DNA of 64,000 nt from a virus (IMGVR_UViG_3300020463_002275:1-64000); one strand, 5' to 3'; shown: positions 1-64,000, counted from the first letter of the stretch. Numbers and translations: made by a program. The notes: generated from the letters alone by a model not told the origin.

Positions 1-909
1 AAAGATGCAAAGAACATAAATTGGAAATATCATCCAGAATTAAAAGAAAGTGTTGAAGAACGTTCGTTATCTAAAGGTGAAGAAAAGGAAAAAGAACGTA
101 TTGTAAAAGGTATGAAGAAAGCCAAAGGTGATTTTAAAGATCGCTATGGTAAAGATGCTGATGCAGTAATGTATGCAACTGCAACTAAACTTGCTAAAGA
201 AGGTAAACACATACCTAATCCTAAAAATGCATTCATTACTAAAGCAGATACTGCTTATGACTTTATTAAAATAGGTACCAATATGGCTAACTTGAAAAGT
301 ATGCCAACAGGGGTTAGTAATTATGACGAACCTGATATTATGATTGCACCTTATGCAGGTAAAAAAGAAATGAAATACCTACAAAAAGAATTAAAGAGAT
401 TAGGTTATAAGGTACAAGATGCTGACGGTTATCAAGATGCACACTATGATGAAAAGCCAACAGGTGGAGAAGAACCACCACAGGTAAAAAACGAAGGAAA
501 ACTAGGACGTTTAAAAATTAGTAAAATGCGTCCAGTACATAAAAAACGTAAATTTAGAAAACTATTTAATCAACTGAAACGTATGGGTGAAAATACTATG
601 TCACCTATTACAGTTGACAAACACGGACATATTGTAAACGGACATCATCGTTATGATGCACTACGTTTAATGGGCGAAGAGTATGCAACTGTAAGAATGA
701 TAGATGTACACGTCAGTGAAACATTAGATGAAAATTTTGCCGACGGTAAAAAAAAGGGCAAAAGTAGACCAGGTAGAGTAAAGAAATCTGGTGCTAGTTG
801 TAACGGATCAGTTACAAAGTTACGTAAAATGGCAAAAAAATACAGTGGTGAACGTGCTAAGATGTATCATTGGTGTGCCAATATGAAGTCAGGTAACAAA
901 AAGAAGTAG
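1..909 (+). CDS. Modular basic protein with a ParB/Srx-like domain (5' partial; runs off the left edge)
   Basis: Frame 1 is open from base 1 (KDAKNINW...). SPITVDKHGHIVNGHHRYDAL resembles the ParB-N GHHR motif. C-terminal module is Lys-rich. Confidence 0.55.
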   Translation, partial: KDAKNINWKYHPELKESVEERSLSKGEEKEKERIVKGMKKAKGDFKDRYGKDADAVMYATATKLAKEGKHIPNPKNAFITKADTAYDFIKIGTNMANLKSMPTGVSNYDEPDIMIAPYAGKKEMKYLQKELKRLGYKVQDADGYQDAHYDEKPTGGEEPPQVKNEGKLGRLKISKMRPVHKKRKFRKLFNQLKRMGENTMSPITVDKHGHIVNGHHRYDALRLMGEEYATVRMIDVHVSETLDENFADGKKKGKSRPGRVKKSGASCNGSVTKLRKMAKKYSGERAKMYHWCANMKSGNKKK

Positions 910-915
910 TAAATA
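910..915 (+). promoter_or_regulatory. Possible late-type promoter core (TAAATA)
   Basis: gTAAATAc directly after the upstream stop, followed by an AGGAG SD and ATG 926. Confidence 0.35.
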
Positions 916-925
916 CAGCATAGGA

Positions 926-1495
926 GTGCTTATGGATTACTTTTTAATACCTGAATTATACATAGATAAACAATTATTCACAAAAAAAGTTAAAGAACAA
1001 TGCGAATCATGGGGCCATTTTGGTTCTGGACGCTTTAAGTTTTACTCTGGCATGCCTGATGATGAAACATTAGATTATTTAGATAATACTTTTAAAAATG
1101 CAGGAGATATTGTAACCAAAGTACTCTTTAATCGTGTAAAAGCAAACAATATTATAGGTCCACACACAGATTATGGAAGAGGTTGTACAATCAACATTCC
1201 AATTTGTGGCGACTTTGCAAACAGTAGCCTAGATGCATATGAATGGACACAGCCTGTAACTGTTGTTAGTCCAAACGAAGATATTGAAGAGACTGAAGAA
1301 AGTCGTTTTTTCCCACATAGTGAAATAGAAGAACAAATAAATTACACAACCTCAATATGTTTTGATACAAGAGTGCCACATGGTGTCACAAACCAAACAA
1401 AGGAAGATAGATTCATACTAGGAGTAACATTTAACGATAAGTTTAAAGTTGGACACATAAAAGAACTATACGAAAAGGGGGAATTGCTTATATGA
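926..1495 (+). CDS. 2OG-Fe(II) oxygenase-like (DSBH) protein
   Basis: HxD motif (GPHTDY), distal His (VPHGVTN), terminal RFILGVTF strand. Confidence 0.65.
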   Translation: MLMDYFLIPELYIDKQLFTKKVKEQCESWGHFGSGRFKFYSGMPDDETLDYLDNTFKNAGDIVTKVLFNRVKANNIIGPHTDYGRGCTINIPICGDFANSSLDAYEWTQPVTVVSPNEDIEETEESRFFPHSEIEEQINYTTSICFDTRVPHGVTNQTKEDRFILGVTFNDKFKVGHIKELYEKGELLI

Positions 1496-1782
1496 TATTT
1501 TGGTTAGGATTTACAGTGATGGTATTAAACGAAGGATTCGTTATAATGCGACATGTACATCCTTGGTTTGCACGTAAACGTGAAGCACTTATGGCCAAGT
1601 ACGGTAGTAACTGGAAACGTTTTCATGCAACACTTGATTATGTATGGATAGGTGGCGTAGGTTTAGGAATAGTATTAGACTTCGCTAACTGGAAATTTTA
1701 TGCAACAGTGTTAGGCGTATTTTGGGGATTAGTTGGTATAGTTGTATACTTACCTATGCTAATAAAAAGGATTTTGCGATGA
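1492..1782 (+). CDS. Small membrane protein
   Basis: Three hydrophobic segments; start overlaps upstream stop (ATGA). Confidence 0.6.
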   Translation: MIFWLGFTVMVLNEGFVIMRHVHPWFARKREALMAKYGSNWKRFHATLDYVWIGGVGLGIVLDFANWKFYATVLGVFWGLVGIVVYLPMLIKRILR

Positions 1783-1958
1783 TTATTAATGGTGTATACA
1801 TACAACCTAATCCTTATGAAGATGGATTATGGGTGACTCTTATGTGTCCGCATAAATACATTACAGAAACTAAACTAATTGTTGAAGATTTCGAAAGTAA
1901 TCAACAACGTAAACAAATAGGCATATTTACGCCTACGGAGGATGAGAATGAAGGCTAA
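1779..1958 (+). CDS. Hypothetical protein
   Basis: ATGA overlap with upstream gene, MIINGVY...; fills the gap exactly. Confidence 0.5.
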   Translation: MIINGVYIQPNPYEDGLWVTLMCPHKYITETKLIVEDFESNQQRKQIGIFTPTEDENEG

Positions 1959-2214
1959 AGAGTTTATGTCAGAAACGACTTCTGCAGGTGCAGTAGCGGC
2001 TGTTGCAATGCCAATAGGTGCTGTTCAATCAAGAACAGGATCAAAAAAGAAGAAAAAAGATACTAAAACAAAAGAAAGCGGATTACAACGCTATACAGGT
2101 ATTAAAAAATACGGAAAAGACGGGTTTGAAGCACTACAAAAAGCAGGCAGAGATGGTGCAAGTGAAGAACAAAAAGGTGCTATTAAAGACAAGTACCTAA
2201 AAAAGAAAAAGTAG
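1948..2214 (+). CDS. Small Lys-rich hypothetical protein (possible internal head protein)
   Basis: GGAGG SD 6 nt before ATG 1948; acidic leader MKAKEFMSE then basic segments. Confidence 0.6.
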   Translation: MKAKEFMSETTSAGAVAAVAMPIGAVQSRTGSKKKKKDTKTKESGLQRYTGIKKYGKDGFEALQKAGRDGASEEQKGAIKDKYLKKKK

Positions 2215-2215
2215 G

Positions 2216-2222
2216 ATAAATA
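2216..2222 (+). promoter_or_regulatory. T4-late-like promoter core ATAAATA
   Basis: Intergenic ATAAATA ~24 nt before ATG 2246; the same heptamer recurs upstream of other genes. Confidence 0.55.
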
Positions 2223-2245
2223 CTATTGTAATTCGGAGTAACACA

Positions 2246-3052
2246 ATGAAGCAAAGTGAGTTATTAGAAAAATCCAAAGGCTTATATCACAACGTTAACA
2301 AACGTAAAAAAGCCGGGACCAGCAGAAAGAAAGGTGCAAAAGGTGCGCCAACTGATCAAGACTGGAAAGATGCGGCTAAGACTGCAAAAGAAACTACTAA
2401 TGAAGGCTTGGCTGAATTAGCAGGTGTTGCTGAAAGAGATCACGAAGTACAAATGGCTCGTGCTGATTTATACAAAATTGCCAAATATGCTATTAAGTTA
2501 CATGAAATGCTAAAAGGTGTTTCCGAAGCAGAAGGCATGCAAGGTTGGCAACAATCAAAGATTACTAAAGCGGCTGATTATATGGGATCAGTTTATCATG
2601 CAATGGATTACGAAAACAAATTTGAAGGTGTAGAAGTAACCGAATCACAAAGAGACACACATTGCTCAGACAAATGCTGTGGATCAGATGTTAAAGCAGA
2701 AGATTGTGGATGTCCTCCAGACTGCGATCATTGTAATTGTAACGATACTAGTATTCCTGAAGGCAAATCACCACATAAAAAAGGTACTAAAAAGTACAAA
2801 AAACATATGGCGGCAAAACATGCTAATATGGGCGAAGACTATAAAGAGTCAATAAGAAACAAACTTCAAGAAGCACTTCAAGAAGTAGAAGAAGTTGCTG
2901 GGTTATGTCCAGAATGTGGACTACCAAGTTATGCAACATTACCAGAAGCAAAACAAAAAGGTGTCGACGGCAAAGTATGCTGGAAAGGCTACAAAAGAAT
3001 GGGCACTAAGAAGAAAAATGGTAAAACTGTAGATAACTGCGTAAAAGCCTAA
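2246..3052 (+). CDS. Modular Lys/Cys-rich hypothetical protein (possible processed head protein)
   Basis: GGAG SD; alternating basic, helical and Cys-rich modules separated by Glu-ending linkers. Confidence 0.6.
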   Translation: MKQSELLEKSKGLYHNVNKRKKAGTSRKKGAKGAPTDQDWKDAAKTAKETTNEGLAELAGVAERDHEVQMARADLYKIAKYAIKLHEMLKGVSEAEGMQGWQQSKITKAADYMGSVYHAMDYENKFEGVEVTESQRDTHCSDKCCGSDVKAEDCGCPPDCDHCNCNDTSIPEGKSPHKKGTKKYKKHMAAKHANMGEDYKESIRNKLQEALQEVEEVAGLCPECGLPSYATLPEAKQKGVDGKVCWKGYKRMGTKKKNGKTVDNCVKA

Positions 3053-3072
3053 CCAAAAATCCAATAAATTAC

Positions 3073-3101
3073 TTGACAAATACCTAAATACAAAGTATAA
3101 T
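3073..3101 (+). promoter_or_regulatory. sigma70-type promoter TTGACA-N17-TATAAT
   Basis: Perfect consensus with 17 bp spacer; AGGAG SD and ATG 3132 downstream. Confidence 0.85.
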
Positions 3102-3131
3102 ATACTGAATACTTTTAATTAGGAGATAATC

Positions 3132-3392
3132 ATGAGTTCACGTACCTATGGTGCAGAAGAAAAAGCGAAACTTGAAAGACTAGTAAACGAAGGTGTTACT
3201 GTGCTTCAAGAAGTAGAAGACCTAAATTCTGGTCTAAAAGAAACAGTTAAGTCTGTTGCAGAAGAATTAGACATTAAGCCAAGCCTTATTAACAAAGCAA
3301 TTAAGATTGCTCAAAAAGGCGAATGGCATAAAGTTTCAGAAGAGTTTGATGATCTAGAAACACTTGTTGTTACAGTTGGCAAGGACAAGTAG
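3132..3392 (+). CDS. dsDNA-binding protein, T4 DsbA/GapR-like
   Basis: Size and helical pattern (EVEDLNSGLKETVKSVAEELDIKPSLINKAIKIA) resemble phage DsbA/DUF2312. Confidence 0.55.
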   Translation: MSSRTYGAEEKAKLERLVNEGVTVLQEVEDLNSGLKETVKSVAEELDIKPSLINKAIKIAQKGEWHKVSEEFDDLETLVVTVGKDK

Positions 3393-3673
3393 TGCAGAAG
3401 ATAAAAGACTTTTGGATTAATAGTTATCAAAGCGACAAGATTGCATTTGCATTTGAACTTGTCAGTTTTATTTTCACAGTCGGCGCCAGTATGACGCTGG
3501 CAATAACAGCCAAAGAACCTAATATGTTATTAGTTTATCCTGCATTTTTTGTTGGTAGTACAACACAATGCTATGCATCTTATCGTAGAGGTGCCGCTTG
3601 GGTAATGTTAATAACAGGTTGGTTTGTATGTGTTAATATATTTGGATACGGAGTAGCCGCTTTATGGTGGTAA
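3392..3673 (+). CDS. Small 3-TM membrane protein
   Basis: Three hydrophobic helices; GTG start overlaps upstream stop. Confidence 0.6.
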   Translation: MQKIKDFWINSYQSDKIAFAFELVSFIFTVGASMTLAITAKEPNMLLVYPAFFVGSTTQCYASYRRGAAWVMLITGWFVCVNIFGYGVAALWW

Positions 3674-3882
3674 AACCTTACCAACCTTTGGCCTGGATCA
3701 GTACAGGTTGTTTACTGATAGCCGCAACATTAGCGGCATTTAACATTTACCCTTGGTATATATTTGCATTTATTGGAAGTAATACTTTATGGGTAATTAT
3801 AGGATTACTTTGGAAAGAACGTAGTCTTGTTGTTCTTAATGCAGGACTTACAGTCATATATATTGTAGGATTAATACTTTGA
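3664..3882 (+). CDS. Small 3-TM membrane protein
   Basis: Three hydrophobic helices; overlaps both neighbours. Confidence 0.6.
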   Translation: MVVKPYQPLAWISTGCLLIAATLAAFNIYPWYIFAFIGSNTLWVIIGLLWKERSLVVLNAGLTVIYIVGLIL

Positions 3883-4457
3883 ATGTACTCATTGCAGGAG
3901 ATAGTTTTGCGGCTGAATGGCCTGGACACAATAGTTGGGTCAAACTTCTCGCAAGAGATTATGATGTAACAAATGTTGCACAAGCAGGTGTAAGTGAATA
4001 TAAAATACTACAACAAATACAAACTGCAAACTTAGATGAATATGATTTAATAATCGTTAGTCATACAAGTCTAAGTAGAGTACATACACCCAAACACCCT
4101 TTACACAAAGAAGGACTTCATAAAGACTGTGATTTAATTTTTAACGATATTAATCGCATAAGTTTTTTTAATGCAAGTCTAAAAGCCGCTAAAGATTATT
4201 TTAAATACCACTATGATGACAAGTACTACCAGACTGTATATAGTTTGCTAAGAAAAGAGATAAACACTATATTAGCAGAAAAAAAGTATCTTAGTATGTC
4301 ACATGTAGAGGTAGCAAAACTTTTTATACACGAAGATAATCATTTAGATTTCAGCGAATTTTGGCAATCACACAAAGGCACAGAAAACCACTATAACATT
4401 ACAGGCAACCAAAAAATATATGATATTGTTGTTGACAAAATCAATAAACTATGCTAG
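3879..4457 (+). CDS. SGNH/GDSL hydrolase-like protein
   Basis: N-terminal LIAGDSF, NVAQAGVS block, C-terminal ENHY His. Confidence 0.6.
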   Translation: MNVLIAGDSFAAEWPGHNSWVKLLARDYDVTNVAQAGVSEYKILQQIQTANLDEYDLIIVSHTSLSRVHTPKHPLHKEGLHKDCDLIFNDINRISFFNASLKAAKDYFKYHYDDKYYQTVYSLLRKEINTILAEKKYLSMSHVEVAKLFIHEDNHLDFSEFWQSHKGTENHYNITGNQKIYDIVVDKINKLC

Positions 4458-4460
4458 TAT
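4432..4460 (+). promoter_or_regulatory. sigma70-type promoter for DNA polymerase (TTGACA-N17-TAGTAT, extended -10 TG)
   Basis: TTGACA 4432-4437; TGc TAGTAT 4452-4460. Confidence 0.6.
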
Positions 4461-4491
4461 TATAATACGCCCAAGAGGCATGCAGATGGTC

Positions 4492-4509
4492 CGTTGGCCA
4501 CAAGCAACG
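4492..4509 (+). promoter_or_regulatory. Hairpin abutting the polymerase SD (candidate translational operator)
   Basis: CGTTG-GCCACAAG-CAACG: 5 bp stem with 8 nt loop, directly followed by AGGAG (4510-4514) and TTG 4521. Confidence 0.5.
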
Positions 4510-4520
4510 AGGAGATAGAG

Positions 4521-7211
4521 TTGAGTTACGTAGACGCACATTTTGATCGCGATTCTGATATTATCAGAACAGTTGAACGTAAAGATGGAAAAAGGCATTT
4601 CCACGAATATCAAGCAAAATATACATTCTATTATAAAGATCAACGAGGCAAGTATAAAAGTGTCTATGGTGATCCTCTCCAACGTATTGTATGTAAAAAC
4701 ACAAAAGACTTTCGTAAAGAAGTTGCTATTAACAAAAGCAAACAATTATTCGAAAGCGACATCAATCCTATATTCCAATGCCTAAGTGAAAATTATCTTA
4801 ACCAAGATGCTCCAAAACTAAACATTGCATTTTTTGATATTGAAACGGACTTTGATCCTGAACGTGGATTTGCTGATCCTAGCGACCCGTTTATGCCTAT
4901 TACATCTGTATCTGTATACTTGCAGTGGTTAGAAACAATGGTATGTTTAGCAGTTCCGCCTAAGACACTTACAATAGATCAAGCAAAGAAAGAACTTGAA
5001 GGTATTGAAAACGTAATGCTTTTCGAAAAAGAAGGTGAAATGATTGACACTTTCTTGACACTAATTGAAGATGCTGATGTATTATCAGGTTGGAACAGTG
5101 AAGGTTATGATATTCCTTACATTGTAAATAGAACAAGTCGTGTACTTTCAAAAGATGACACAAGACGTTTTTGTTTGTGGCAACAACTTCCTAAGAAAAG
5201 AGAATACGAAAAGTATGGTAAATCAGCGGAAACCTATGACCTAGTAGGTAGGGTACATTTAGATAGTTTGAATTTATATCGTAAATACACGTATGAAGAA
5301 AGACATAGTTACAGACTTGATGCTATTGGTGAAGTTGAAGTTGGTGAAAATAAAGTTCCTTATGAAGGCACTTTGGATCAATTGTACAACAATGACTTTA
5401 GAAAATTCATTGAATACAACATACAAGATACCGCTCTACTGGACAAATTGGACAAAAAACTAAGATTTATTGATCTTAGTAATGAACTGGCTCATGCAAA
5501 TACAGTTTTGCTACAGACCACAATGGGAGCAGTTGCAGTTACAGAACAAGCGATTGTAAACGAAGCACATCATCGAGGACTTCAAGTTCCAAATAGATCA
5601 AAATATGATGATGAAAGCACAGCCGCGGCAGGTGCTTATGTGGCATTTCCTAAAAAAGGATTACACAAATGGATAGGTAGTATGGACTTGAACAGTCTGT
5701 ATCCTAGTGTGATTCGTGCATTAAATATGGCACCCGAAACAATCATAGGACAAATACGTCCAACTATAAGCGAAGCCCGTGTACACGAAGATATGACGCT
5801 TAAAAAGAAAAGTTTTGCAGGATCTTGGGAGGGACGTTTTTCAACAGAAGAATATGAAGCAGTAATGGAACAACGTAGAGATGTATCACTTACTGTTGAT
5901 TGGGAACAAGGAAAGTCACCTGCAGGTTCACCGAGTGATGTACTTAGTGGTGCAGAGATTTACAAATTAATTTATGATAGTAATATGCCTTGGATGCTTT
6001 CATCTAACGGAACAATCTTTACAACTGAGTTTGAAGGTGTTATTCCAGGTATACTTGAACGTTGGTATTCAGAACGTAAAGAATTACAAGCACAACTTAA
6101 AAAAGCAAAAGATGCTGGCAATAAAATAGAAATTGAATATTGGGACAAAAGACAATTAGTTAAAAAGATTAACCTAAATAGTTTATATGGTGCTATTCTT
6201 AATCCAGGTTGTAGATTTTTTGATAAACGTATTGGTCAGTCAACAACACTTACAGGTCGTACTATTGTTAAACACATGTCAGCAGAAGTAAACAAAGTTA
6301 TAACAGGCAAATATGATCACGTAGGTGAAGCAATGATATATGGTGATACAGATAGTTGTTACTTTAGTGCTCATCCTGTTCTTAAAGAACAAATAGACAA
6401 AGGACAAGTGCCTTGGGGTAAAGATAACGTAATTAAACTTTATGATCAAGTATGTGAAGCGGCTAATGAAACATTTCCAAAGTTTATGCTAAATGCATTT
6501 CATTGTCCTAAGTCACGTTCAGATGTAATTGCGGCGGCAAGAGAAATTGTTGCAGAGTCAGGCTTGTATATTACAAAGAAACGTTATGCGGCATTAGTAT
6601 ATGATATTGAAGGCTTTAGAAGTGATGTAGATGGAAAGCCTGGTAAAGTAAAAGCAATGGGATTAGATTTACGTAGATCAGATACTCCTGTGTTTATGCA
6701 ACAGTTCTTAAGCGAACTATTATTAATGGTACTTACTGATAAACCACAAGCAGATGTACTAGAACGTATTACACAGTTCCGTAAAGAGTTTTCAGAACGT
6801 CCAGGTTGGGAGAAAGGATCTCCTAAACGTGCAAACAAGATTGGACACTATCAACGACTAGAAGAAAAGCAAGGCAAAGCAAACATGCCTGGACACGTAA
6901 GAGCAAGCATCAACTGGAATACACTTAAACGTATGAATGGCGACAAGTATTCGCAAGAGATTGTAGACGGTATGAAAGTTATTGTGTGTAAACTAAAACA
7001 GAATCCGTTAGGTTATACAAGTGTTGCGTATCCAACAGATGAACTACGTATACCAGATTGGTTTAAAGAACTGCCATTTGATGATGACGCAATGGCAGAA
7101 ACAATTATCGATAACAAACTAGACAACTTAATTGGTGTGCTTAACTATCCATTACAAGATACCAAGCAACACAATACATTTAACAGCCTATTTGATTTTG
7201 GAGAACAATGA
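4521..7211 (+). CDS. polB: Family B DNA polymerase with 3'-5' exonuclease
   Basis: ExoI FDIET; motif A SMDLNSLYPS; motif B KINLNSLYG; motif C YGDTDS; KKRY. Start moved to TTG 4521, which has an AGGAG SD. Confidence 0.95.
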   Translation: MSYVDAHFDRDSDIIRTVERKDGKRHFHEYQAKYTFYYKDQRGKYKSVYGDPLQRIVCKNTKDFRKEVAINKSKQLFESDINPIFQCLSENYLNQDAPKLNIAFFDIETDFDPERGFADPSDPFMPITSVSVYLQWLETMVCLAVPPKTLTIDQAKKELEGIENVMLFEKEGEMIDTFLTLIEDADVLSGWNSEGYDIPYIVNRTSRVLSKDDTRRFCLWQQLPKKREYEKYGKSAETYDLVGRVHLDSLNLYRKYTYEERHSYRLDAIGEVEVGENKVPYEGTLDQLYNNDFRKFIEYNIQDTALLDKLDKKLRFIDLSNELAHANTVLLQTTMGAVAVTEQAIVNEAHHRGLQVPNRSKYDDESTAAAGAYVAFPKKGLHKWIGSMDLNSLYPSVIRALNMAPETIIGQIRPTISEARVHEDMTLKKKSFAGSWEGRFSTEEYEAVMEQRRDVSLTVDWEQGKSPAGSPSDVLSGAEIYKLIYDSNMPWMLSSNGTIFTTEFEGVIPGILERWYSERKELQAQLKKAKDAGNKIEIEYWDKRQLVKKINLNSLYGAILNPGCRFFDKRIGQSTTLTGRTIVKHMSAEVNKVITGKYDHVGEAMIYGDTDSCYFSAHPVLKEQIDKGQVPWGKDNVIKLYDQVCEAANETFPKFMLNAFHCPKSRSDVIAAAREIVAESGLYITKKRYAALVYDIEGFRSDVDGKPGKVKAMGLDLRRSDTPVFMQQFLSELLLMVLTDKPQADVLERITQFRKEFSERPGWEKGSPKRANKIGHYQRLEEKQGKANMPGHVRASINWNTLKRMNGDKYSQEIVDGMKVIVCKLKQNPLGYTSVAYPTDELRIPDWFKELPFDDDAMAETIIDNKLDNLIGVLNYPLQDTKQHNTFNSLFDFGEQ

Positions 7212-10213: not shown

Positions 10214-10220
10214 GAGTTTT

Positions 10221-10415
10221 ATGACAGATGATAGATCAGAAGATGCAACATACGAAAACGAAAGTAGTACGGTAACGATACCTTTGAGAGAATACGATAA
10301 GTTACGTGAGCGTCAATCATATATTACTGATAAAAGTTTAATTGGTATAATTGATAAGTTAGAAGAACTTGTTAGAGCATTGAGAAAACATATAGTAAGG
10401 ACGGACTTTGATTAA
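10221..10415 (+). CDS. Hypothetical protein
   Basis: AGGAG SD before ATG 10221. Confidence 0.55.
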   Translation: MTDDRSEDATYENESSTVTIPLREYDKLRERQSYITDKSLIGIIDKLEELVRALRKHIVRTDFD

Positions 10416-11973
10416 TAAAGATTTAACAGCAACACAAAACGACTACGCACATTTTTTGCCAGCATTGAGCGGCTTCTATGCAACATATGTAGGTAAGCAA
10501 CGCTTTCCTGATCCTGTTAAAGGTCCTTACATTGAAGACACACGTATTCCTGCTAATTGGAATAACAATGTAGAAAGTCTTAACTATCTTAACAAACAAC
10601 AAGGAGCATTTACTTACAAGTGGTCATTGTATTCAGCAGGACATGCTGATTTAGATACAACTAAAGTTGTTCCAAAAGAAGATATGGTTCGTAATAGAGA
10701 CCGAGATAATACTTGGTTACTAGGCGACTCAGGCGGATTCCAAATTGGTAAAGGTGTTTGGGAAGGAGACTGGAAAGATCCTAACTGTCCTAAAGCACAA
10801 AAGAAACGTGATGGCGTTCTGAAATGGATGGACGCATATATGGACTATGGTATGATACTTGATATTCCAGCATGGGTATCACGTTCACCAGCAGGTGCAA
10901 AAGCAACAGGTATTAGCACATATCAAGAAGCAGTAAAGGCAACACGTATTAACAACGATTACTTTATGAAGCATAGAACTGGTGCTTGTAAATTTTTAAA
11001 TGTTTTACAAGGCGAAAATCATGCAGATGCAGATGATTGGTATGACCAAATGAAAGATTACTGTGATCCTGTTAAGTATCCTGACACTCATTTTAATGGT
11101 TGGTCTATGGGTGGACAGAACATGTGCGATGTACATTTGGTTCTTAAACGCCTAGTTGCATTGTATTATGACAATCTATTACAACAAGGTGTGCATGATG
11201 TAATGCATTTCTTAGGCACATCTAAATTAGAATGGGCTACGTTGTTAACTGATATACAAAGAGCAGTAAGAAAATATTATAACCCTAATTTTATGATTAC
11301 ATTCGATTGTGCAAGTCCTTTCTTAGCAACTGCTAACGGACAAGTTTACATACAAAATGAAACTCCTGATAGAGGAAAATGGACATATAGAATGGTTCCG
11401 AGTATAGATGATAAAAAATATGCTACGGATACACGTACATTTAAAGATGCTGTATTACAAGATGGTATCTTTAAAAACTTTGAAGACAGTCCTGTAACAG
11501 ATGGAATGCTTGTAAAAGATATCTGTGTTTATAAACCTGGGGACTTAAACAAAATAGGTAAAGAAGGAAAAACATCGTGGGATAGTTTTTCATATGCGAT
11601 CCAGATGGGTCATAACGTGTGGAGTCACATAAATGCAGTTCAAGAAGCAAACAGACAGTATGACGCTGGAGTTATTCCTAAAATGCTTGTACAAGAGCAA
11701 TTTGACAGGATTCTATTCAGAGATGTTGTGGAAGAAATATTCTCAAAGACTACAAAAGAAGAGTCATTAAAAGTAATTGATGAGTATTCAAAGTTTTGGA
11801 TGGCTATACCTGGTACTAGAGGTGCTGTTGGTAAAAAGACAGTAAACAGTAGTACCTTTTTTGATGCTTTGTTTGATGTAGATCAAACTCAAGAGCAAAC
11901 TGATGAAGAGGAACTAGATGAAACCAAATTGGAGGAACTAGAAGATGAGCAACTACACGGACAAACACGATAA
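10408..11973 (+). CDS. dpdA: tRNA-guanine transglycosylase-fold protein, DpdA-like (DNA 7-deazaguanine insertase candidate)
   Basis: TGT motifs in order: GDSGGFQ, MILD, VLQG, SMGG, HFLG, TFDCASP; no C-terminal Zn CxCxxC seen; queD-like and queE nearby. Confidence 0.7.
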   Translation: MINKDLTATQNDYAHFLPALSGFYATYVGKQRFPDPVKGPYIEDTRIPANWNNNVESLNYLNKQQGAFTYKWSLYSAGHADLDTTKVVPKEDMVRNRDRDNTWLLGDSGGFQIGKGVWEGDWKDPNCPKAQKKRDGVLKWMDAYMDYGMILDIPAWVSRSPAGAKATGISTYQEAVKATRINNDYFMKHRTGACKFLNVLQGENHADADDWYDQMKDYCDPVKYPDTHFNGWSMGGQNMCDVHLVLKRLVALYYDNLLQQGVHDVMHFLGTSKLEWATLLTDIQRAVRKYYNPNFMITFDCASPFLATANGQVYIQNETPDRGKWTYRMVPSIDDKKYATDTRTFKDAVLQDGIFKNFEDSPVTDGMLVKDICVYKPGDLNKIGKEGKTSWDSFSYAIQMGHNVWSHINAVQEANRQYDAGVIPKMLVQEQFDRILFRDVVEEIFSKTTKEESLKVIDEYSKFWMAIPGTRGAVGKKTVNSSTFFDALFDVDQTQEQTDEEELDETKLEELEDEQLHGQTR

Positions 11974-16355: not shown

Positions 16356-16890
16356 AAAACATTATTATTCTTGGAATGATATAGAAGATATGTGCCTAAG
16401 TATTGTTAATCAGATGTACAAAGACCAATGGAGACCTGATTATATTGTAGGTATTACAAGAGGTGGTAATGTTCCTGCAACGATAATTAGTAATATGACT
16501 GGGATACGTTGTGAAGCAATTAAAGTAAGTTTACGTGATGATAGTAAACTAGAAAGTAATACTTGGATGGCGGAAGATGCTCTTGGATACAATGACGGTA
16601 CACAAATTACAGGTGGACCTTTATATAAAAAAATTCTTATCGTAGATGATATTAATGACACTGGTGCAACCTTTAATTGGATTGCAAAAGACTGGCAACA
16701 AAGTTGTCATCCAACTAATGCACGTTGGACTGACGTATGGGGAAACAATGTTCGTATTGCTACACTAACAGATAACATGGCCAGTGAAACAGTATTACCA
16801 ATTAGTTATACATGTCATGAAGTAAACAAAGCAGAAGAAGATATATGGCTTGTATATCCTTGGGAAAATGTAGGAGTATATGATGGATGA
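16348..16890 (+). CDS. Purine phosphoribosyltransferase (type I PRTase, Gpt-like)
   Basis: IVGITRGG, PRPP loop ILIVDDINDTGAT, WLVYPWE terminus. Confidence 0.85.
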   Translation: MIKKHYYSWNDIEDMCLSIVNQMYKDQWRPDYIVGITRGGNVPATIISNMTGIRCEAIKVSLRDDSKLESNTWMAEDALGYNDGTQITGGPLYKKILIVDDINDTGATFNWIAKDWQQSCHPTNARWTDVWGNNVRIATLTDNMASETVLPISYTCHEVNKAEEDIWLVYPWENVGVYDG

Positions 16891-17494
16891 AATAAAAGTA
16901 GATAGATTAGATTTATTTCCTGTTCCAATTATTGGATCAGAATATGCACACGCAGAAAGTTTAGCACAAACGCTAATTCCTATTTTTAAAAAAATAGAAG
17001 AAGAAGATGAAAATCCAAGACCTTATAGTGCAAATGGTTACACAAACTATGACCCAGGAACACAAGTTATTGAACGTATTGAATGTAATCATTTGAGAGA
17101 ATGGATCGGTCAAGTTGGTATGGAAGGTAACAAAACTTTAGGCGTTGAAGCAGATTTAACATTTGTTGGTAGTTGGTTTAGTATTAATAGAAAACATACA
17201 TACCATGAAATGCATAATCATATTCCTGCAACATGGAGTGGAGTATATTATGTGCAAGCAAAAGAAGATGATGCACCTATAACATTTTACGATACTAACA
17301 AACAAACTAATTGGCCTTGGGCAGGCTATAAAGAACCAAATGCATATAACACTCCTTCATATAGTGTTACTCCTAAAACAGGACGTTTATTAATTTTTCC
17401 TGCACACTTAGTTCACGGTGTAAGCCAGCAGAAAAAAGATAGTGAAAGAATTACAATAAGTTTTAATTTACAAGCAACACAGGGTTTTAAATAA
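16880..17494 (+). CDS. 2OG-Fe(II) oxygenase (TIGR02466-like)
   Basis: HEMHNH..WSGVYYV, LIFPAHLVHGV, ERITISFN. Confidence 0.8.
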   Translation: MMDEIKVDRLDLFPVPIIGSEYAHAESLAQTLIPIFKKIEEEDENPRPYSANGYTNYDPGTQVIERIECNHLREWIGQVGMEGNKTLGVEADLTFVGSWFSINRKHTYHEMHNHIPATWSGVYYVQAKEDDAPITFYDTNKQTNWPWAGYKEPNAYNTPSYSVTPKTGRLLIFPAHLVHGVSQQKKDSERITISFNLQATQGFK

Positions 17495-17844: not shown

Positions 17845-18050
17845 AACCAGGTGAAGCAATTATCTTAGCCGCACGTAAACAAGCGGAAGGTCAAGTAGCA
17901 ATCCATCTAGCAAATATCAAAGTTTATACAACGATGCCTGCAGGTATAGGAGAACATCCAGACGTTACTGAACAGGTAATATCAGAGTTAAATAAACTTG
18001 GTAGTGCCAACGAAAGATTAGAAATGATTGAAAAATATTTTAATGACTAA
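17841..18050 (+). CDS. Hypothetical protein
   Basis: Overlapping start/stop; GIGEHPD motif common in small phage proteins. Confidence 0.55.
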   Translation: MKPGEAIILAARKQAEGQVAIHLANIKVYTTMPAGIGEHPDVTEQVISELNKLGSANERLEMIEKYFND

Positions 18051-18864
18051 GACGCTTTTTATAGGCGATAGTCATACATGCGGATACAAAACAGTTCCTG
18101 GTAAAGTAGGACCAGGTAGTTACTCTGTATGGAATGAAAATAGTTATGTAAATGAATATGTTAACTTACATAATAAAAAGGCTGTTGTTTATGCAATGCC
18201 AGGCGCAAACAATCGGACGTATGCAGACTGGTTAGGGAGTATGTTTAAAACTTACGATGACATTGATGAGGTAATTATTTTGATGTCATCGTTAAACCGT
18301 TTTATGTTAGGATTTAATGAAAAACTATCTCCTAAGGTAATTCCAATAGAACAATTTACACATTTTGAAGGCACAGATAACACAGGCATGATTGATAGAT
18401 ATATTGATGAGATTATTTCAGAAGAATATTTTCAATTATATCAGAAACCTACCAACGATGATTATGAAAAATTTCCTGGATTAAATTTTAGTTATGACAA
18501 AGGATTGATAGATCCAGATATACGTAAATCTTCTTACATGCAAATAAAAACATTTTTTGAACTTAATACACATTTAGAACAACGTGATTTCTTTAAAGAT
18601 ATCTATACATGGGATAATATGTGTGCAGATAGAGATATTCCTTTATACCTATTTAAGATGCGTGAAAGAACATTCTTTCCAGAAGCATGGGATTTTTACG
18701 GAAAACTTAAAGTAACTAAGATAGCAGATCAAAGTGTAGAAGAATTTTTTACACAAAGGAATATTGATTATAATAACTATTTTGAAGAAGACAAAGAACA
18801 TTTTAACCAATTATACCATAAACTTATTGCACAAAAGTTTTTAAAACACTTGACAAAGGTCTAA
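18043..18864 (+). CDS. SGNH hydrolase-like protein
   Basis: FIGDSH, AMPGANN, C-terminal DKEHFN. Confidence 0.55.
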   Translation: MTKTLFIGDSHTCGYKTVPGKVGPGSYSVWNENSYVNEYVNLHNKKAVVYAMPGANNRTYADWLGSMFKTYDDIDEVIILMSSLNRFMLGFNEKLSPKVIPIEQFTHFEGTDNTGMIDRYIDEIISEEYFQLYQKPTNDDYEKFPGLNFSYDKGLIDPDIRKSSYMQIKTFFELNTHLEQRDFFKDIYTWDNMCADRDIPLYLFKMRERTFFPEAWDFYGKLKVTKIADQSVEEFFTQRNIDYNNYFEEDKEHFNQLYHKLIAQKFLKHLTKV

Positions 18865-18902: not shown

Positions 18903-19829
18903 ATGTCATTAGCACAACATGAATTTGGTAAAACTGTAGAAAAGAAGTTTTACTATTCAGAAATATTTCATAGTATTCAAGGTGAAGGACACTATACTGG
19001 TGTTCCGACTGCATGGATTAGATTTTTCTTGTGTAATTTACAATGCAACGGGTTTGGACAAATAGATCCTACTAATCCTGATACATATGAATTACCTTTT
19101 CAAGACTTTGATGTATCAAGTGTAAAACGTGTTGAGGACTTGCCTGTATGGGATAAAGGTTGTGATTCAAGTTACACATGGGCAAAGAAGTTTAAAGACT
19201 TAATGGGTCAAGAAACGCCAACTGTGATGGCAAATAAAATTATAGATATATTAAAGAACGAAAGTAATCCAGAAGGATTGTTTAAACATCCAGTAACAGG
19301 ACAAAGTCAACACTTATGTATCACAGGCGGAGAGCCTTTAATGGTAACTGGACAGACAGCAACTGTTGGAATATATGAAGAACTTGAAAGACAAGGTAAC
19401 TTGCCGGGCAGTATGACATTTGAAACTAATGGTACACAAAAACTTAGACAACCATTTATTGATTGGGTAAACAGAATAGACACAGAAATATTTTTTAGTT
19501 GTAGTCCTAAACTATGGTCAGTTTCAGGTGAGAAAAGAGAAAAAGCAATTAAGCCTGAAATAGTAGCAGAGTATAGAAAACTTTCAGACAAAGGACAACT
19601 AAAATTTGTAGTAGGTCCTGAAGGTAAAGAGTGGGATGAGATGGAAGAAGTAATTAAACTTTTTAAAGCAGAAGGTGTTGATTGGCCTATATGGGTTATG
19701 CCTACAGGTGCTAGAGAAGAAGAACAAATAGCAGGTGCAGGTAAAGTTGCTGAAAAGGCATTTAAACGTGGCTATAACGTAGCGGCAAGAGTACATGTAT
19801 ACTTGTTTGGTAATGCAATAGGAACTTAA
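18903..19829 (+). CDS. queE: 7-carboxy-7-deazaguanine synthase QueE (radical SAM)
   Basis: EIFHSIQGEGHYTG.P..WIRF, CNLQC...CDS, ITGGEP, FETNG, SCSPK, R.HVYLFGN. Confidence 0.85.
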   Translation: MSLAQHEFGKTVEKKFYYSEIFHSIQGEGHYTGVPTAWIRFFLCNLQCNGFGQIDPTNPDTYELPFQDFDVSSVKRVEDLPVWDKGCDSSYTWAKKFKDLMGQETPTVMANKIIDILKNESNPEGLFKHPVTGQSQHLCITGGEPLMVTGQTATVGIYEELERQGNLPGSMTFETNGTQKLRQPFIDWVNRIDTEIFFSCSPKLWSVSGEKREKAIKPEIVAEYRKLSDKGQLKFVVGPEGKEWDEMEEVIKLFKAEGVDWPIWVMPTGAREEEQIAGAGKVAEKAFKRGYNVAARVHVYLFGNAIGT

Positions 19830-19830
19830 T

Positions 19831-24132: not shown

Positions 24133-25215
24133 ATGGAATCTGTAGTACGAACTGTTACTCCAAATGGAGCAAAGAAAAGTATTATTAGGGCATTCAAAAA
24201 GAAACGTCCTATTTTTATGTGGGGCCCTCCAGGTATTGGAAAATCTGATATTATTGGGCAAATCACAAAACAACTAAAAAACTCACATCTAATTGATGTA
24301 CGTTTATCACTTTGGGAACCGACTGATATTAAAGGTATCCCGTATTATGCGGCAAACGATAATACAATGATGTGGGCACCACCACAAGAACTTCCAACAG
24401 AAGAATTTGCAAAGAAGTTCGATTATATTGTTCTTTTCCTAGATGAAATGAACTCTGCGGCTCCGGCAGTACAAGCGGCGGCTTATCAATTAATTTTAAA
24501 TAGACGTGTTGGACAATACAAATTGCCTGACAACGTTCTCATTGTTGCGGCTGGTAACCGTGAAGCAGATAAAGGTGTTACTTATAGAATGCCTGCTCCA
24601 CTTGCCAATCGTTTCGTTCACTTAGAACTAGCAGTTGATTTTGATGACTGGTTTGCATGGGCAGTAGATAACAACATTCACAATGATGTTGTTGGTTACT
24701 TAACATTTAGCAAGAAAGATTTATACGATTTCGATCCAAAGTCTCCTTCACGTTCTTTTGCAACGCCAAGAACTTGGTCGTTTGTTTCTGAACTACTTGA
24801 AGATGACGATGACGAAACTACCACTACTGATTTAATTAGTGGTGCAGTTGGAGAAGGTTTGGCTGTCAAATTTATGGCTCACCGTAAGGTTGCCGCTAGT
24901 ATGCCTAACCCAACTGAAATACTCGCAGGTAAAGTTAAAGAAATGGCCACTAAAGAAATCAGTGCCATGTATTCCTTGACCGTGAGCCTTTGCTATGAAC
25001 TTAAACAGGCGTCAGATAAAAATGACAAAAAGTTTGATGACATGGTTAATAACTTCCTGCGATTTGCAATGGATAACTTCGAAACAGAACTTGTTGTTAT
25101 GGGAATTAAAGTTGCTATTACACAATACCAACTTCCAATTGATCCAGACGAAGTTGCATGTTTTGATGAATTCCATGAACGTTTTGGCAAGTACATTAGT
25201 GCCGCCAGTAACTAA
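24133..25215 (+). CDS. MoxR-like AAA+ ATPase
   Basis: Walker A GPPGIGKS, Walker B LFLDE, AAGN, PLANRF; GAGGA SD before ATG 24133. Confidence 0.88.
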   Translation: MESVVRTVTPNGAKKSIIRAFKKKRPIFMWGPPGIGKSDIIGQITKQLKNSHLIDVRLSLWEPTDIKGIPYYAANDNTMMWAPPQELPTEEFAKKFDYIVLFLDEMNSAAPAVQAAAYQLILNRRVGQYKLPDNVLIVAAGNREADKGVTYRMPAPLANRFVHLELAVDFDDWFAWAVDNNIHNDVVGYLTFSKKDLYDFDPKSPSRSFATPRTWSFVSELLEDDDDETTTTDLISGAVGEGLAVKFMAHRKVAASMPNPTEILAGKVKEMATKEISAMYSLTVSLCYELKQASDKNDKKFDDMVNNFLRFAMDNFETELVVMGIKVAITQYQLPIDPDEVACFDEFHERFGKYISAASN

Positions 25216-42089: not shown

Positions 42090-42680
42090 ATGAAGGATAT
42101 GATTAGACTGGCTAGAACTGTAGAACGCTGTCAAAGGAATTTTGATCATACGAAAAGAATACCTAATAAACATGTAAAATACATTTTGAACTGTGCTACT
42201 AGTATGCCTACAAAACAGCAACAAAATTTTTATAACATTACAGTTATAGAAGAAGAGCCTCTTGCAAGAGAGTTTTATACTACTTGTTCTATTGCAGACG
42301 GTGAAGAATGGAGGAATAGCCAAACTTATGCTCCATTAGTTTTATTATATTCGACTTACCCGAAATATAACAGATATGAGCCATATAATGATATAGCGAT
42401 GTCTATAGGGCTCAGTTCAGGAGCCGCCGCACTTGCCGCCGCCAATTTGGGATATAAAACAGGTTTTTGTAAATGCATCGACGAACATCTAACAAATGCA
42501 TTTGTTTGGGATCATTTTCGTAAAAAAGTATGGGATCCAACACTGGCAGTAGGAATAGGACATTCTTTAGAAGGATTCGACAGAACTGAAGGTGTATTAG
42601 ATGGTGAAGTAAAATATCAAGCAGAATCCAATGGAGACAAAGAAATTAAAATTTTTAGACGTCCGCGGCCATCTCCTTAA
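42090..42680 (+). CDS. Nitroreductase-family flavoprotein
   Basis: RCQRNFD, AT.MPTKQ.QNFY, AAANLGYKTGFC, LAVGIG; the only + strand gene in the - block. Confidence 0.75.
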   Translation: MKDMIRLARTVERCQRNFDHTKRIPNKHVKYILNCATSMPTKQQQNFYNITVIEEEPLAREFYTTCSIADGEEWRNSQTYAPLVLLYSTYPKYNRYEPYNDIAMSIGLSSGAAALAAANLGYKTGFCKCIDEHLTNAFVWDHFRKKVWDPTLAVGIGHSLEGFDRTEGVLDGEVKYQAESNGDKEIKIFRRPRPSP

Positions 42681-50824: not shown

Positions 50825-50835
50825 GATATACGTAC

Positions 50836-57950: not shown

Positions 57951-58278
57951 TAAGGATTCCTTGTACAGTTCTTTCACTATCAACTATTTTTTGATATTCA
58001 GAATGATAACTTTCTGAGGCTTTTGTAAATGCTGTGACTAATTCGTTATAAAATGCTTCTTTATTTTTAATTTTAATAGGAGTGTTATTATTGTCTACAA
58101 AAATATCACTTTTTAGTGCTAGTATACTTGCAATAAATTCTCTAGTGGCAGTAAATTGCCCGCCTTCATAATAGACAGTGCATTCTTTTGTATACTTTTC
58201 TTGTAATATGCGTTTTTGGTTTTTAAATGTTGTAACGTAATCTGCATGTTCTAATGCTTTTTTAAGACGTTGATCCAT
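57943..58278 (-). CDS. Hypothetical protein
   Basis: GGAG SD; first gene behind a sigma70 promoter. Confidence 0.65.
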   Translation of the reverse strand: MDQRLKKALEHADYVTTFKNQKRILQEKYTKECTVYYEGGQFTATREFIASILALKSDIFVDNNNTPIKIKNKEAFYNELVTAFTKASESYHSEYQKIVDSERTVQGILNV

Positions 58279-58297
58279 AATTTCTCCATATAGCAGT

Positions 58298-58326
58298 ATT
58301 ATATGACAGATCGACTAAAAAGTCAA
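58298..58326 (-). promoter_or_regulatory. sigma70-type promoter TTGACT-N17-TATAAT on the - strand
   Basis: agtcaa 58321-58326, attata 58298-58303. Confidence 0.8.
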
Positions 58327-58329
58327 GTA

Positions 58330-59277: not shown

Positions 59278-59329
59278 TTACTCTTCTCCAATTATATAGT
59301 AAAAATGATACTATACTTTATTAATTATG

Positions 59330-60238: not shown

Positions 60239-60248
60239 GCCTGCTTCC

Positions 60249-61730: not shown

Positions 61731-61754
61731 GTTTCAACCCTTTAATTATAACTA

Positions 61755-61761
61755 TATTTAT
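61755..61761 (-). promoter_or_regulatory. T4-late-like promoter core ATAAATA
   Basis: tatttat in the intergenic gap upstream of ATG 61730. Confidence 0.55.
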
Positions 61762-61762
61762 C

Positions 61763-63583
61763 TTACACACTAGATGTAAGGTTTTGGCTAAATGTCCAAT
61801 TCCCACCTGATGTGACGTATTCCTTTAATGATCTTGTTACACTAACTGTAACTGATCCAGTTGCGTTTGTAAAACCAATATCTTGTAATACTGATTCATT
61901 TTGTACTCCTGCGGCGTCTACTGCTATAAACGATTTAGTTGTGACTGCTGTTATATCAATACCTGTAACACTTGCACCGCCAAGTGTTGTACAGTGAATT
62001 TTTGCAGTTGTACCGTTTGCAACAGTACTTGCATTAACTAAGTCGTTTAGCACTAAGCCAATTTGTGTATCATTTAATCCTGTAATATCCATACTAAATG
62101 AAATAGCCGCCGCTGAAATTGATTCATCAACATATTGTTTTGATGCTCCATCTGTTGCTTGTGTTGGTAATGCTAAAGCAGTAATTTTTTGATTTGCTAG
62201 ATTTACGTCACCGTTTCCGTTAATCGTAAGTCCACTAGCACCTGTAATTGTACTACCATTAATATTGATATTATCAACATCTAAATTAACTAGTGTACCT
62301 ACGGTTGTAAGGCTAGATGCTGTAACACCGCCTCCTAATGTTGTAGCACTTAGTACTGATGATCCTGCAATTTTGTATTCGTTACCTGTTGTAACATTAA
62401 TATTTTCTGTTGCTGTCCAACTATTAGTTGCTTGTATCCAAGTCCATTTTTTGTCTGCTCCTGTAACTCTTATAACCATACCAGCATCGTCTACGCCTGC
62501 ATCTGTTAACAAAGTACTGTCGCTAGTAATAGCAAGTTCAATTTGTTTATCTTCTACTCTTAAAGTGCTTACATCTATACTTGCACTAGATCCTTCTACT
62601 AATAAATTTCCTGTTACACGAATATCTCCTGTAACATCTAATGTATACTCTGGTGTGTTATCAAAAATACCTACACGTTTGTTTGCCGCGTCTATGAATA
62701 CAGCATCAATTTGTTGTGCCCCTGCGGCTGTACTTGTAACTCTTATTGCATAGTTTTCATCTAATTGTGCATTCGCTGTAACAAATGAATTACCTATAAT
62801 ACTTAAAGTTTGGTTAGCATTAGGTCCTATAGTAACCCCTGATGAATTACTAACTGTTAGAGAACCAGTAATAGTGTTATTTGTTGTTGAACTTACAAAG
62901 TTATCAGCACCAACTTTCGTACCGTCTGCTTTTATTAATGCCTTTGCCGCATCTGCTGTTCCTTCAAATATAAAATTATCTTTGTCAATTACGTTTATAC
63001 CTTTTTTGATATTACCTGTAATACCATCTATTGTGTATCCTACTGCTGGGGTAAATTCAACATTACTAATAACAGCGGCTCTTGCTGTTGAACCATCAGT
63101 ACCATTACCTAAATATAAACTTGCAAGTGTACGACTTCTGTCTTGAGTGTCAAGCACACTTTCAATTCTAAATCCTGTCTCACCTTGTTTTGATTTGTAT
63201 ACCGGTCCTGCTAATGTAGGATTACCTGATCCATCAAAAAAGTATAACTGATCATTTACATTGTCAATCCATAGATCACCAGCAACCATAGCAGGTTGTT
63301 GTTTTTGTACAAAAGGTCCACCAACATATTTAAAATATGTACCTTCATAAACTTTTACACGGGCTTCACCTGTATCAAACCAAAGTTGTCCTTTTATAGG
63401 ATTAGTTGGACTATTAGAATTACTAAAATTTTCTAGTAGTTTTATAAAATTTTCATTAAATGCTTCGCCGTATCCTGTATAATTTCTACCTACTAATGTA
63501 AGCGAAGTACTGTTAACATCAATAGTTCCATCAATTAAATCTACTAGTAACGTGCCGTCTGTTTTGTTTAGTTTATACGCCAT
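61763..63583 (-). CDS. Baseplate-wedge/tail-fibre-like structural protein
   Basis: MAYKLNKTDG...GRNYTGYGE..NENFIKLLENF N-terminus homologous to 60249..61730; beta-repeat body. Confidence 0.72.
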   Translation of the reverse strand: MAYKLNKTDGTLLVDLIDGTIDVNSTSLTLVGRNYTGYGEAFNENFIKLLENFSNSNSPTNPIKGQLWFDTGEARVKVYEGTYFKYVGGPFVQKQQPAMVAGDLWIDNVNDQLYFFDGSGNPTLAGPVYKSKQGETGFRIESVLDTQDRSRTLASLYLGNGTDGSTARAAVISNVEFTPAVGYTIDGITGNIKKGINVIDKDNFIFEGTADAAKALIKADGTKVGADNFVSSTTNNTITGSLTVSNSSGVTIGPNANQTLSIIGNSFVTANAQLDENYAIRVTSTAAGAQQIDAVFIDAANKRVGIFDNTPEYTLDVTGDIRVTGNLLVEGSSASIDVSTLRVEDKQIELAITSDSTLLTDAGVDDAGMVIRVTGADKKWTWIQATNSWTATENINVTTGNEYKIAGSSVLSATTLGGGVTASSLTTVGTLVNLDVDNININGSTITGASGLTINGNGDVNLANQKITALALPTQATDGASKQYVDESISAAAISFSMDITGLNDTQIGLVLNDLVNASTVANGTTAKIHCTTLGGASVTGIDITAVTTKSFIAVDAAGVQNESVLQDIGFTNATGSVTVSVTRSLKEYVTSGGNWTFSQNLTSSV

Positions 63584-64000
63584 TAAACTTTCCCTGTGTA
63601 AATTATGTAATTTAAGGACATAAACGGATTTAGTGTTTCCATTGCTTGCCCTGTTGTTCCAGAAACTCCTCCACTTGTTGTTACAGCCTGCCCTGCATTT
63701 TGCCCTGTTGGAGCATCAAAAATAATTGATGATGTTGGACTATTAACACCTTTTTGTGCATCAAGTATTGCGTAAAACTGTGTACCTTCAACAACTAAGT
63801 CGTGTTCGTGATCTGGTAAATTAACTTGCCCAATAGTAGTTGTTTCTTGACCGCCAGTATTACCAAGTTCACTACCTTGTAATCCTGAAATTCTGCCAGC
63901 ACCTGTTCCGCCCATATCGTCAAGTCCCATAACAGTTCTACCACGCATGTCTGGTAAAGCAAATCTTGCAACACCTGCATCGCTAAGTAGTCCTTGTTGT
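63583..64000 (-). CDS. Tail-collar-domain fibre protein (5' partial; runs off the right edge)
   Basis: FALPDMRGRTVMG...GGQETTTI...LPDHEH...NPFMSLNYIIYTG is the tail-collar C-terminal pattern. Confidence 0.8.
   Translation of the reverse strand, partial: QQGLLSDAGVARFALPDMRGRTVMGLDDMGGTGAGRISGLQGSELGNTGGQETTTIGQVNLPDHEHDLVVEGTQFYAILDAQKGVNSPTSSIIFDAPTGQNAGQAVTTSGGVSGTTGQAMETLNPFMSLNYIIYTGKV

Follow-up and report, generated by a model that had tools for sequence, protein, structure and literature searches.

Absence of AGCT and GCWGC from the DNA of a seawater jumbo phage and its on/off variation among recombining relatives

Staphylococcus phage K and its relatives are large myoviruses free of GATC, and their host enzyme is known to be of the Sau3AI type. 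Here we describe a 64,000-nt stretch of viral DNA (IMGVR_UViG_3300020463_002275:1-64000, termed the window) that resembles phage K in having zero copies of a four-base restriction word, AGCT. In contrast to phage K, which lacks one word and has a known host enzyme, the window lacks two, AGCT and GCWGC (GCAGC and GCTGC). A survey found that roughly one viral genome in ten has lost all or nearly all of its sites for some word (Rusinov et al. 2018, PMC6286503), and the purge described here is of this known kind, restriction-site avoidance, at its extreme end. It shares with the surveyed cases the removal of short palindromic Type II words by synonymous recoding in a large, lytic-type double-stranded DNA phage; however, two words are at zero over ~250 kb of a jumbo genome, and the state is on or off word by word among freely gene-exchanging relatives.

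Both words are known targets of Type II restriction-modification (R-M) systems, and methylases for both are present in a REBASE-derived table (PMC11033074), in agreement with an earlier reading of the window from its sequence alone (the sequence-only reading), which had taken them for AluI-type and TseI/ApeKI-type sites. The missing words are exactly the recognition sequences of AluI, TseI, ApeKI and BbvI; however, the sampled phage DNA has no such enzyme or methylase, and a palindromic and an asymmetric Type IIS specificity would leave the same loss of GCAGC and GCTGC.

A further comparison is offered by phages whose DNA contains 7-deazaguanines, which protect it from restriction (Hutinet et al. 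2019, PMC6884629). In phage CAjan, modification takes place at GA and GGC (Kot et al. 2020, PMC7544227), and the DpdA3-type phages replace all G with a deazaguanine (Cui et al. 2023, PMC10516641). As in those phages, QueE and FolE are encoded, together with a TGT-like protein with a GDSGGFQ motif next to the polymerase; the differences are that modification genes and total site loss coexist here, and that the transglycosylase is too divergent for the Pfam, PHROG and PDB profiles. New here are the word-by-word polymorphism among recombining relatives and its correlation with a cassette adjacent to the polymerase.

Loss of both words by silent recoding

The window covers the first 64 kb of a viral contig of 181,934 bp (51% complete by CheckV estimate) and has a GC content of 34%. 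Exact counting on both strands gave 0 AGCT, 0 GCAGC and 0 GCTGC, compared to 115 (maximal-order Markov) or 201 (zero-order) expected for AGCT and 49 or 35, respectively, for GCWGC. These are the sole four- and five-base words in the window with a zero count and an expectation above 5. The control words GATC (166), CCGG (24), GGCC (36), CCWGG (48), GANTC (68) and GCSGC (72) are all present, and the gap is thus specific to the two words. The site-free stretch spans positions 1..64000 on both strands, and the rest of the contig is the same: over its full length, AGCT is found 0 times against 394 (Markov) or 589 (zero-order), and GCWGC 0 times against 193 or 111. Both words are symmetric on double-stranded DNA, GCAGC being absent in both orientations, and the 6.5 kb of non-coding DNA in the contig are likewise free of them.

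As the contig is 96% coding, with 166 open reading frames (ORFs) called, the counts were also compared to 200 within-ORF permutations of synonymous codons over all 166 ORFs, in which the proteins and the codon usage of each gene are kept. The shuffled genes contain 463±15 AGCT (minimum 423) and 212±7 GCWGC (minimum 190), compared to 0 of either in the real genes; codon or dinucleotide bias therefore does not explain the gap. GCSGC exceeds the shuffle expectation (277 vs 77), as a by-product of the recoding of GCWGC. The absence of the two words is real and statistically overwhelming. The sequence-only reading had proposed it from a manual scan, with a rough estimate of 150-200 AGCT and tens of GCWGC that agrees with the computed values; neither counts near expectation nor codon or dinucleotide bias alone, the two results that it named as speaking against the gap, emerged from the Markov and codon-preserving comparisons.

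Analysis of the codons revealed that both words are lost through silent choice of codons and codon pairs. Alanine is encoded by GCA (64%), GCT (22%), GCC (6%) and GCG (8%). However, in the 235 Ala-Ala pairs of the genome the first codon is GCG (155) or GCC (80) and never GCA or GCT, which together make up 86% of all Ala codons. The sequence-only reading had described this GCG-GCN/GCC-GCN spelling, and its three examples are all found: an alanine run written GCC-GCC-GCA...GCC-GCC-GCC, which avoids GCWGC (42423..42443), a second written GCG-GCT...GCG-GCG-GCT (24456..24483), neither with a strand assigned, and a third at ~6531. For AGCT, the codon GCT never follows a codon with a final A (0/1293, vs 33% elsewhere), the serine codon AGC never precedes a codon that begins with T (0/759, vs 13% elsewhere), and the leucine codons CTN never follow NAG (0/73, vs 40% elsewhere).

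Comparison of 31 orthologue pairs with the site-bearing relative G001 showed how the words are replaced. G001 has 77 AGCT in these genes, 49 of which are replaced in the phage without a change of amino acid. The replacements hit all four positions of the word (AGCA 13, AGCG 4, AGCC 4, TGCT 4, and others), which indicates selection among synonymous options rather than a single mutational bias. G001 itself has about half the expected number of GCWGC, and all 16 GCWGC in its conserved orthologues are frame-0 Ala-Ala pairs, the other two frames having 0.

The gap could also arise from a mutational process, such as deamination of methylated C in AGCT and GCWGC, or from an artefact of sequencing or assembly. 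In favour of such an origin, 22 of the 77 replacements are of the C-to-T type (AGTT, AACT and AATT). On the other side, replacements occur at all four positions and follow the codon frame, and a mutational bias does not reach 0 of ~460. Moreover, the same site-free sequence was assembled independently, with different assemblers, from JGI and several ENA/Tara samples, with all ORFs intact, and the phage sequence is found in runs from 8 studies, all of them seawater metagenomes; the site-free state is thus no assembly artefact. This origin is already largely refuted, and we regard it as very improbable.

Overlapping contigs from other samples, nearly identical to this one in the stretches compared, add about 32 kb on the left and 38 kb on the right, again with 0 AGCT and 0 GCWGC. 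The site-free span thereby covers ~250 kb of an estimated ~350-kb genome, of which ~100 kb lie outside the sampled DNA. One Tara scaffold, L137, matches the contig at 97.5% identity over 10.6 kb and has a divergent patch of ~150 bp (L137:7300-7440; contig ~178,560-178,760), which comprises a gene end and a terminator and carries two AGCT. The patch either was imported in a small recombination event or reflects a chimeric assembly of the scaffold.

Differences among relatives and selection by host restriction

The phage is common in seawater, and its close polymerase relatives are encoded in more than 590 IMG/VR loci. Its family B DNA polymerase (4494..7211, + strand; Pfam PF00136 and PF03104) reaches no more than 45% identity to the polymerase of any cultured phage, and megablast against cultured phages gave no match. 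In its major capsid protein, the phage shares 67-71% identity with Rak2-like, PA5oct-like and Atu_ph07-like jumbo phages, and a complete IMG/VR relative, G006, has 357,559 bp.

A first set of 80 loci, collected around the polymerase gene (87-99% protein identity), revealed that the two words vary among relatives. Six loci are without both words, one is without AGCT and has few GCWGC, and seven are without GCWGC only, whereas the remaining loci keep both, at 1-5.6 AGCT and 0.1-2.3 GCWGC per kb. A second set of 80 loci, collected around a conserved head gene, includes seven with neither word, two lacking GCWGC only and 69 with both. The AGCT-free genomes are nearly a subset of the GCWGC-free ones, and the polymerase tree requires 2 changes for the AGCT-free state and 6 for the GCWGC-free state. 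The AGCT purge and the GCWGC purge are separate traits.

Identity rankings are strongly discordant from gene to gene, which indicates much recombination among these phages; the site-free state is kept despite this recombination with site-bearing relatives. Mosaics of site-free and site-bearing DNA are seen in L098, L101 and L137 (the 150-bp patch with two AGCT), and could be either genuine recombinants or chimeric assemblies. The site-keeping relatives G006 (complete), G007, G008 and G001 were searched for C5 and N4/N6 methylases, and none was found.

Further words are partly depleted in the phage. Compared to the codon-preserving null, it has 4 vs 27 GTGCAC, 15 vs 62 CTGCAG, 0 vs 10 TGCGCA, 0 vs 9 AGCGCT, 2 vs 11 GCTAGC, 6 vs 16 GGTACC, 67 vs 144 GCGC and 45 vs 100 CAATTG, while GATC (469 vs 477), TGCA, GTAC, CATG, ACGT and CTAG occur about as often as expected. 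The avoided words are not the same throughout the group: L024 and L025 have few TGCA (together 48 vs 186 expected), as does L229 (12 sites in 12.7 kb), and the complete relative G006 has 2 vs 55 GTGCAC, 0 vs 26 AGCGCT and 28 vs 91 AAGCTT. Exposure to several R-M systems classically leaves many words depleted to graded extents that differ between lineages (Rusinov et al. 2018, PMC6286503).

We therefore favour, at somewhat better than even confidence, selection by Type II R-M systems of the host, one of AluI type (AGCT) and one of TseI/ApeKI or BbvI type (GCWGC/GCAGC), on the basis of the zero counts against the codon-preserving null, the rule-like silent recoding, the symmetry of both words and their standing as Type II targets, this lineage-specific, graded depletion of many palindromes in the phage and its relatives, the site-free span of ~250 kb, and the finding of no methylase or restriction-type nuclease in the contig. 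Sequence-specific endonucleases, presumably encoded by the host, would cut double-stranded DNA bearing AGCT or GCAGC/GCTGC, and the phage lineage would escape cutting by removing every such word. Imported segments that carry a site would be selected out, and the site-free phages would thus form a gene pool of their own, with their own accessory genes.

Several points weigh against host restriction. No cognate R-M system can be named. The published marine methylomes consulted report AGCT methylation in Thaumarchaeota and GCWGC methylation in one Chloroflexi metagenome-assembled genome (PMC8919816), and both are unlikely hosts for a phage with a TonB-dependent receptor gene. The absolute zero contrasts sharply with the state of recombining relatives (0 vs at least 0.3 sites/kb), and a cutter met in every infection, for example one encoded by the phage, would account for it no less well than a host barrier met from time to time. 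Finally, if all G were replaced by a deazaguanine, by analogy with the DpdA3-type phages (PMC10516641), many G-containing sites should already be protected. Strong selection, as put forward by the sequence-only reading, stands on the total absence of the words, their silent removal and the failure of composition to explain it; the two agents which that reading offered, host R-M and a nuclease or methylase of the phage itself, are not separated by these data.

A clue to the host is a gene for a TonB-dependent receptor (Plug and beta-barrel, 578 amino acids (aa)), followed by one for a DUF6580 membrane protein, at 112126-114338 of the contig (L086:7126-9338). Both genes are absent from the relatives G001 and G002. 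The receptor points to a Gram-negative host; a search for a close cellular relative of it found none. A thaumarchaeal host was judged unlikely because of the Shine-Dalgarno sites, the TonB-dependent receptor gene and the lack of avoidance of GATC, which those archaea methylate (PMC8919816).

The missing words are a record of the DNA cutters met by an abundant uncultured ocean phage, and judging by the on/off pattern among gene-exchanging relatives, such words may limit gene flow between phages. Site-free and site-bearing sisters, each with a distinct gene beside the polymerase, offer a natural experiment for identifying the cutter and the host and for probing the limits of 7-deazaguanine protection.

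Genes of site-free DNA and the search for a cutter

The gap between a DUF6552 gene and the polymerase gene (3664-4494 of the window, and the same place in L001-L080) is a hypervariable slot, which is either empty or holds one of at least five alternative genes: an SGNH-like protein, two types of 2OG oxygenase, a 240-aa and a 243-aa protein of no assigned function, and a HAD-like 114-aa protein. In the window it is occupied by an SGNH/GDSL-like hydrolase of 192 aa (3879..4457, + strand). Among the 80 polymerase-anchored relatives, this gene is found in exactly the seven AGCT-free loci. In six loci lacking only GCWGC, the slot holds a 2OG-Fe(II) oxygenase of 201-218 aa (PF13759), the 218-aa form being encoded at L003:2749-3405. 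Elsewhere the slot is empty or taken by other genes; the most frequent of these, encoding the 240-aa protein, tracks no purged word. Homologues of the SGNH-like protein with at least 68% identity lie in AGCT-free DNA, except for one mosaic contig; of those at 50-55% identity several lie in AGCT-poor DNA, and more distant ones in normal DNA. Similarly, slot oxygenase homologues with at least 71% identity are all in GCWGC-free or nearly GCWGC-free DNA.

Structural similarity search with an AlphaFold2 model of the 192-aa protein (pLDDT 84) using Foldseek revealed that the best hits are all GDSL esterases or acylhydrolases, such as TesA, with E values of 1.5e-4 and weaker and TM scores up to 0.56. 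Residues G7-D8-S9 (block I) and N170-H171 (block V) are invariant in 18 homologues. The asparagine of the block III GxND motif is absent, the position reading SHTS followed by a His-rich stretch, and sequence profiles gave no hit above threshold in Pfam and none in PHROGs or PADLOC. According to the model, the protein appears SGNH-like in fold, and we do not file it as a regular SGNH/GDSL member.

Three further genes of the window, likewise for tailoring-type enzymes, are limited to AGCT-free DNA. A 189-aa protein with a weak match to 2OG oxygenases (Asp/Asn hydroxylase) is encoded at 926..1495 (+ strand), and its gene is found in AGCT-free relatives only (4/4 loci reaching that far). A 2OG-Fe(II) oxygenase (PF13759) in the deazaguanine gene cluster (16880..17494, + strand) has close homologues (78-89% identical) in four loci, all with 0 AGCT, three with 0 GCWGC and one with 1, and is absent from G001 and G002. 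In the same cluster, a second SGNH/GDSL-like protein of 278 aa (18028..18864, + strand; weak PF00657 match) has close homologues (79-96% identical; L152-L155) seen only in site-free DNA.

With independent contrasts taken on the polymerase tree, the links between cassette and word come down to 2/2 and 3/4 events, numbers that put significance out of reach. Moreover, a barrier that kept site-bearing DNA out of site-free genomes would by itself make every accessory gene of the site-free pool correlate with the loss of sites. The SGNH-like and 2OG-oxygenase genes are thus treated as probable markers of the site-free pool and not as its cause.

Following a suggestion of the sequence-only reading, the phage was searched for matching methyltransferases and endonucleases, and no site-specific one was found in the contig or its ~70-kb flanks. 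Six-frame search of the 182-kb contig found no C5, N4/N6 or Dam-type methylase (PF00145, PF01555 and PF02086), ~100 kb of the genome lying outside the contig and its extensions, and no HNH, Mrr-type or PvuII-type nuclease. Stored Pfam hits of the called genes showed no restriction or methylase gene in the contig or in the ~70 kb of flanking overlapping contigs, and our own scans of a few of the flanking genes showed none, nor did Pfam and PADLOC scans of the lineage-specific ORFs of unassigned function reveal one.

The only restriction-fold protein found is a TnsA-like PD-(D/E)XK protein (170443-170880; PHROG 'head closure', of the T4 gp4 head-completion type), which was rejected as the cutter since it belongs to the conserved core, being found in more than 597 loci whether or not they carry sites. 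A SegE-type GIY-YIG gene (97327-97884) was rejected because it also occurs in the site-bearing G001 and G006. The SGNH-like protein at 3879-4457 was rejected as an AGCT nuclease on account of its esterase-type fold and of homologues at or below 50% identity that sit in DNA with normal AGCT, and the 2OG-oxygenase cassette because it matches PF13759. A target at the RNA level was rejected since both words are symmetric and the non-coding DNA is free of them too, and a CviJI-like RGCY specificity is excluded by the presence of AGCC and GGCC.

These results bear on the idea that the phage has one or two sequence-specific nucleases of its own and no matching methylase. The nucleases would cut the DNA of the host or of rival phages while the loss of sites keeps the phage's own DNA safe; the gene or genes would lie in the ~100 kb outside the sampled DNA or among the ORFs of unassigned fold. 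The absolute zero over ~250 kb and the on/off difference between close, recombining genomes are consistent with such an arrangement, as is the travelling of the site-free status with lineage-specific accessory genes. Relatives that keep the sites also have no C5 or N4/N6 methylase, even in the complete 357.6-kb genome of G006, and the sites are harmless there. Nevertheless, no such nuclease gene was found: the TnsA-like gene is core, the SegE-type gene is shared with site-bearing genomes, and of the two cassette proteins that go with site loss, one is an SGNH-fold hydrolase and the other a 2OG oxygenase, neither of them a nuclease. A phage nuclease also leaves the many partly depleted palindromes unexplained, and the near-identical L137, possibly a chimeric contig, carries two AGCT in its small divergent patch. 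Altogether, we consider a nuclease of this kind rather unlikely.

A slightly broader and similarly doubtful proposal is that the site-free status is self-imposed, in that a methylase-less nuclease or another DNA-targeting enzyme of the site-free lineages attacks AGCT or GCWGC in every infection, so that its carriers would have to become and stay devoid of the word. If true, a freely recombining group would be split into isolated pools, each with its own cassette adjacent to the polymerase.

7-deazaguanine modification and neighbouring regions

The sequence-only reading had also supposed that the phage modifies its DNA. This is borne out in part. QueE is clear: a QueE-like radical SAM enzyme of the 7-carboxy-7-deazaguanine synthase type is encoded at 18903..19829 (+ strand; phrog_2076, E 3e-54). 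FolE is present in the right-hand extension, ~15 kb beyond the right end of the contig (L143:3611-4321), and lies inside the cluster in G001. For the transglycosylase the support comes from a motif, with a weak fold match. The candidate DNA guanine transglycosylase (TGT/DpdA-like, 521 aa; 10408..11973, + strand) has a GDSGGFQ motif (residues 106-112) that is invariant in 17 homologues, and we take the active-site motif DSGGFQ to mark TGT enzymes. No sequence match was found for it in Pfam, PHROG or PDB, and a poor model (pLDDT 50) matched archaeosine TGT with a Z score of 9.3 and DpdA with 8.4, compared to up to 8.7 for unrelated TIM barrels. The QueE-like gene is 35-37% identical to the gene in the same place in G001, G002, L154 and L155, some of which are site-free, and the deazaguanine cluster is thus mosaic as well.

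A link between modification context and site loss is possible. In one form of it, the purge complements the modification: site-free lineages would have their own set of enzymes, with additional SGNH hydrolases and 2OG oxygenases, for tailoring the 7-deazaguanine base, and either that base or their transglycosylase would leave the G of AGCT and GCWGC exposed. Only these lineages would then need to lose the words, and the cutter would still be a host enzyme. The genes specific to site-free DNA are indeed tailoring-type enzymes beside or inside the deazaguanine cluster (3879-4457, 16880-17494 and 18028-18864), and GA and GGC, the two contexts of modification in CAjan (PMC7544227), occur in none of the strongly purged words, while the GA-containing GATC is at expectation. 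However, when all palindromes are taken together, depletion is no weaker in words with GA or GGC than in the others (Mann-Whitney p 0.70), and the AGCT that survive in relatives are barely enriched for a preceding G (0.13 to 0.20). The link between genes and words, on 2 and 3-4 independent events, could reflect population structure. We thus judge a complementing purge improbable.

Two regions outside the contig were also noted. About 18-20 kb to the left of the contig start (L258:12621-14893), genes for proteins of 162, 147, 343, 59 and 50 aa lie between MazG and the clamp loader, in a block that is absent from G001, G002 and G006. The 343-aa protein, which ends in ...SGLHCVT (HC motif) and has no Pfam hit, looks from its sequence like the amidinotransferases and arginine deiminases, and its gene is confined to site-free DNA. 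About 25-35 kb to the right of the contig end (L261:8000-15524), an early-type region on the opposite strand has a GC content of ~41%, many small ORFs, kilobase-sized gaps between called genes, and genes for tRNA-Arg(TCT) and tRNA-Leu(TAA). It has 5 AGCT in that contig and 0 in the equivalents in L260 and L262.

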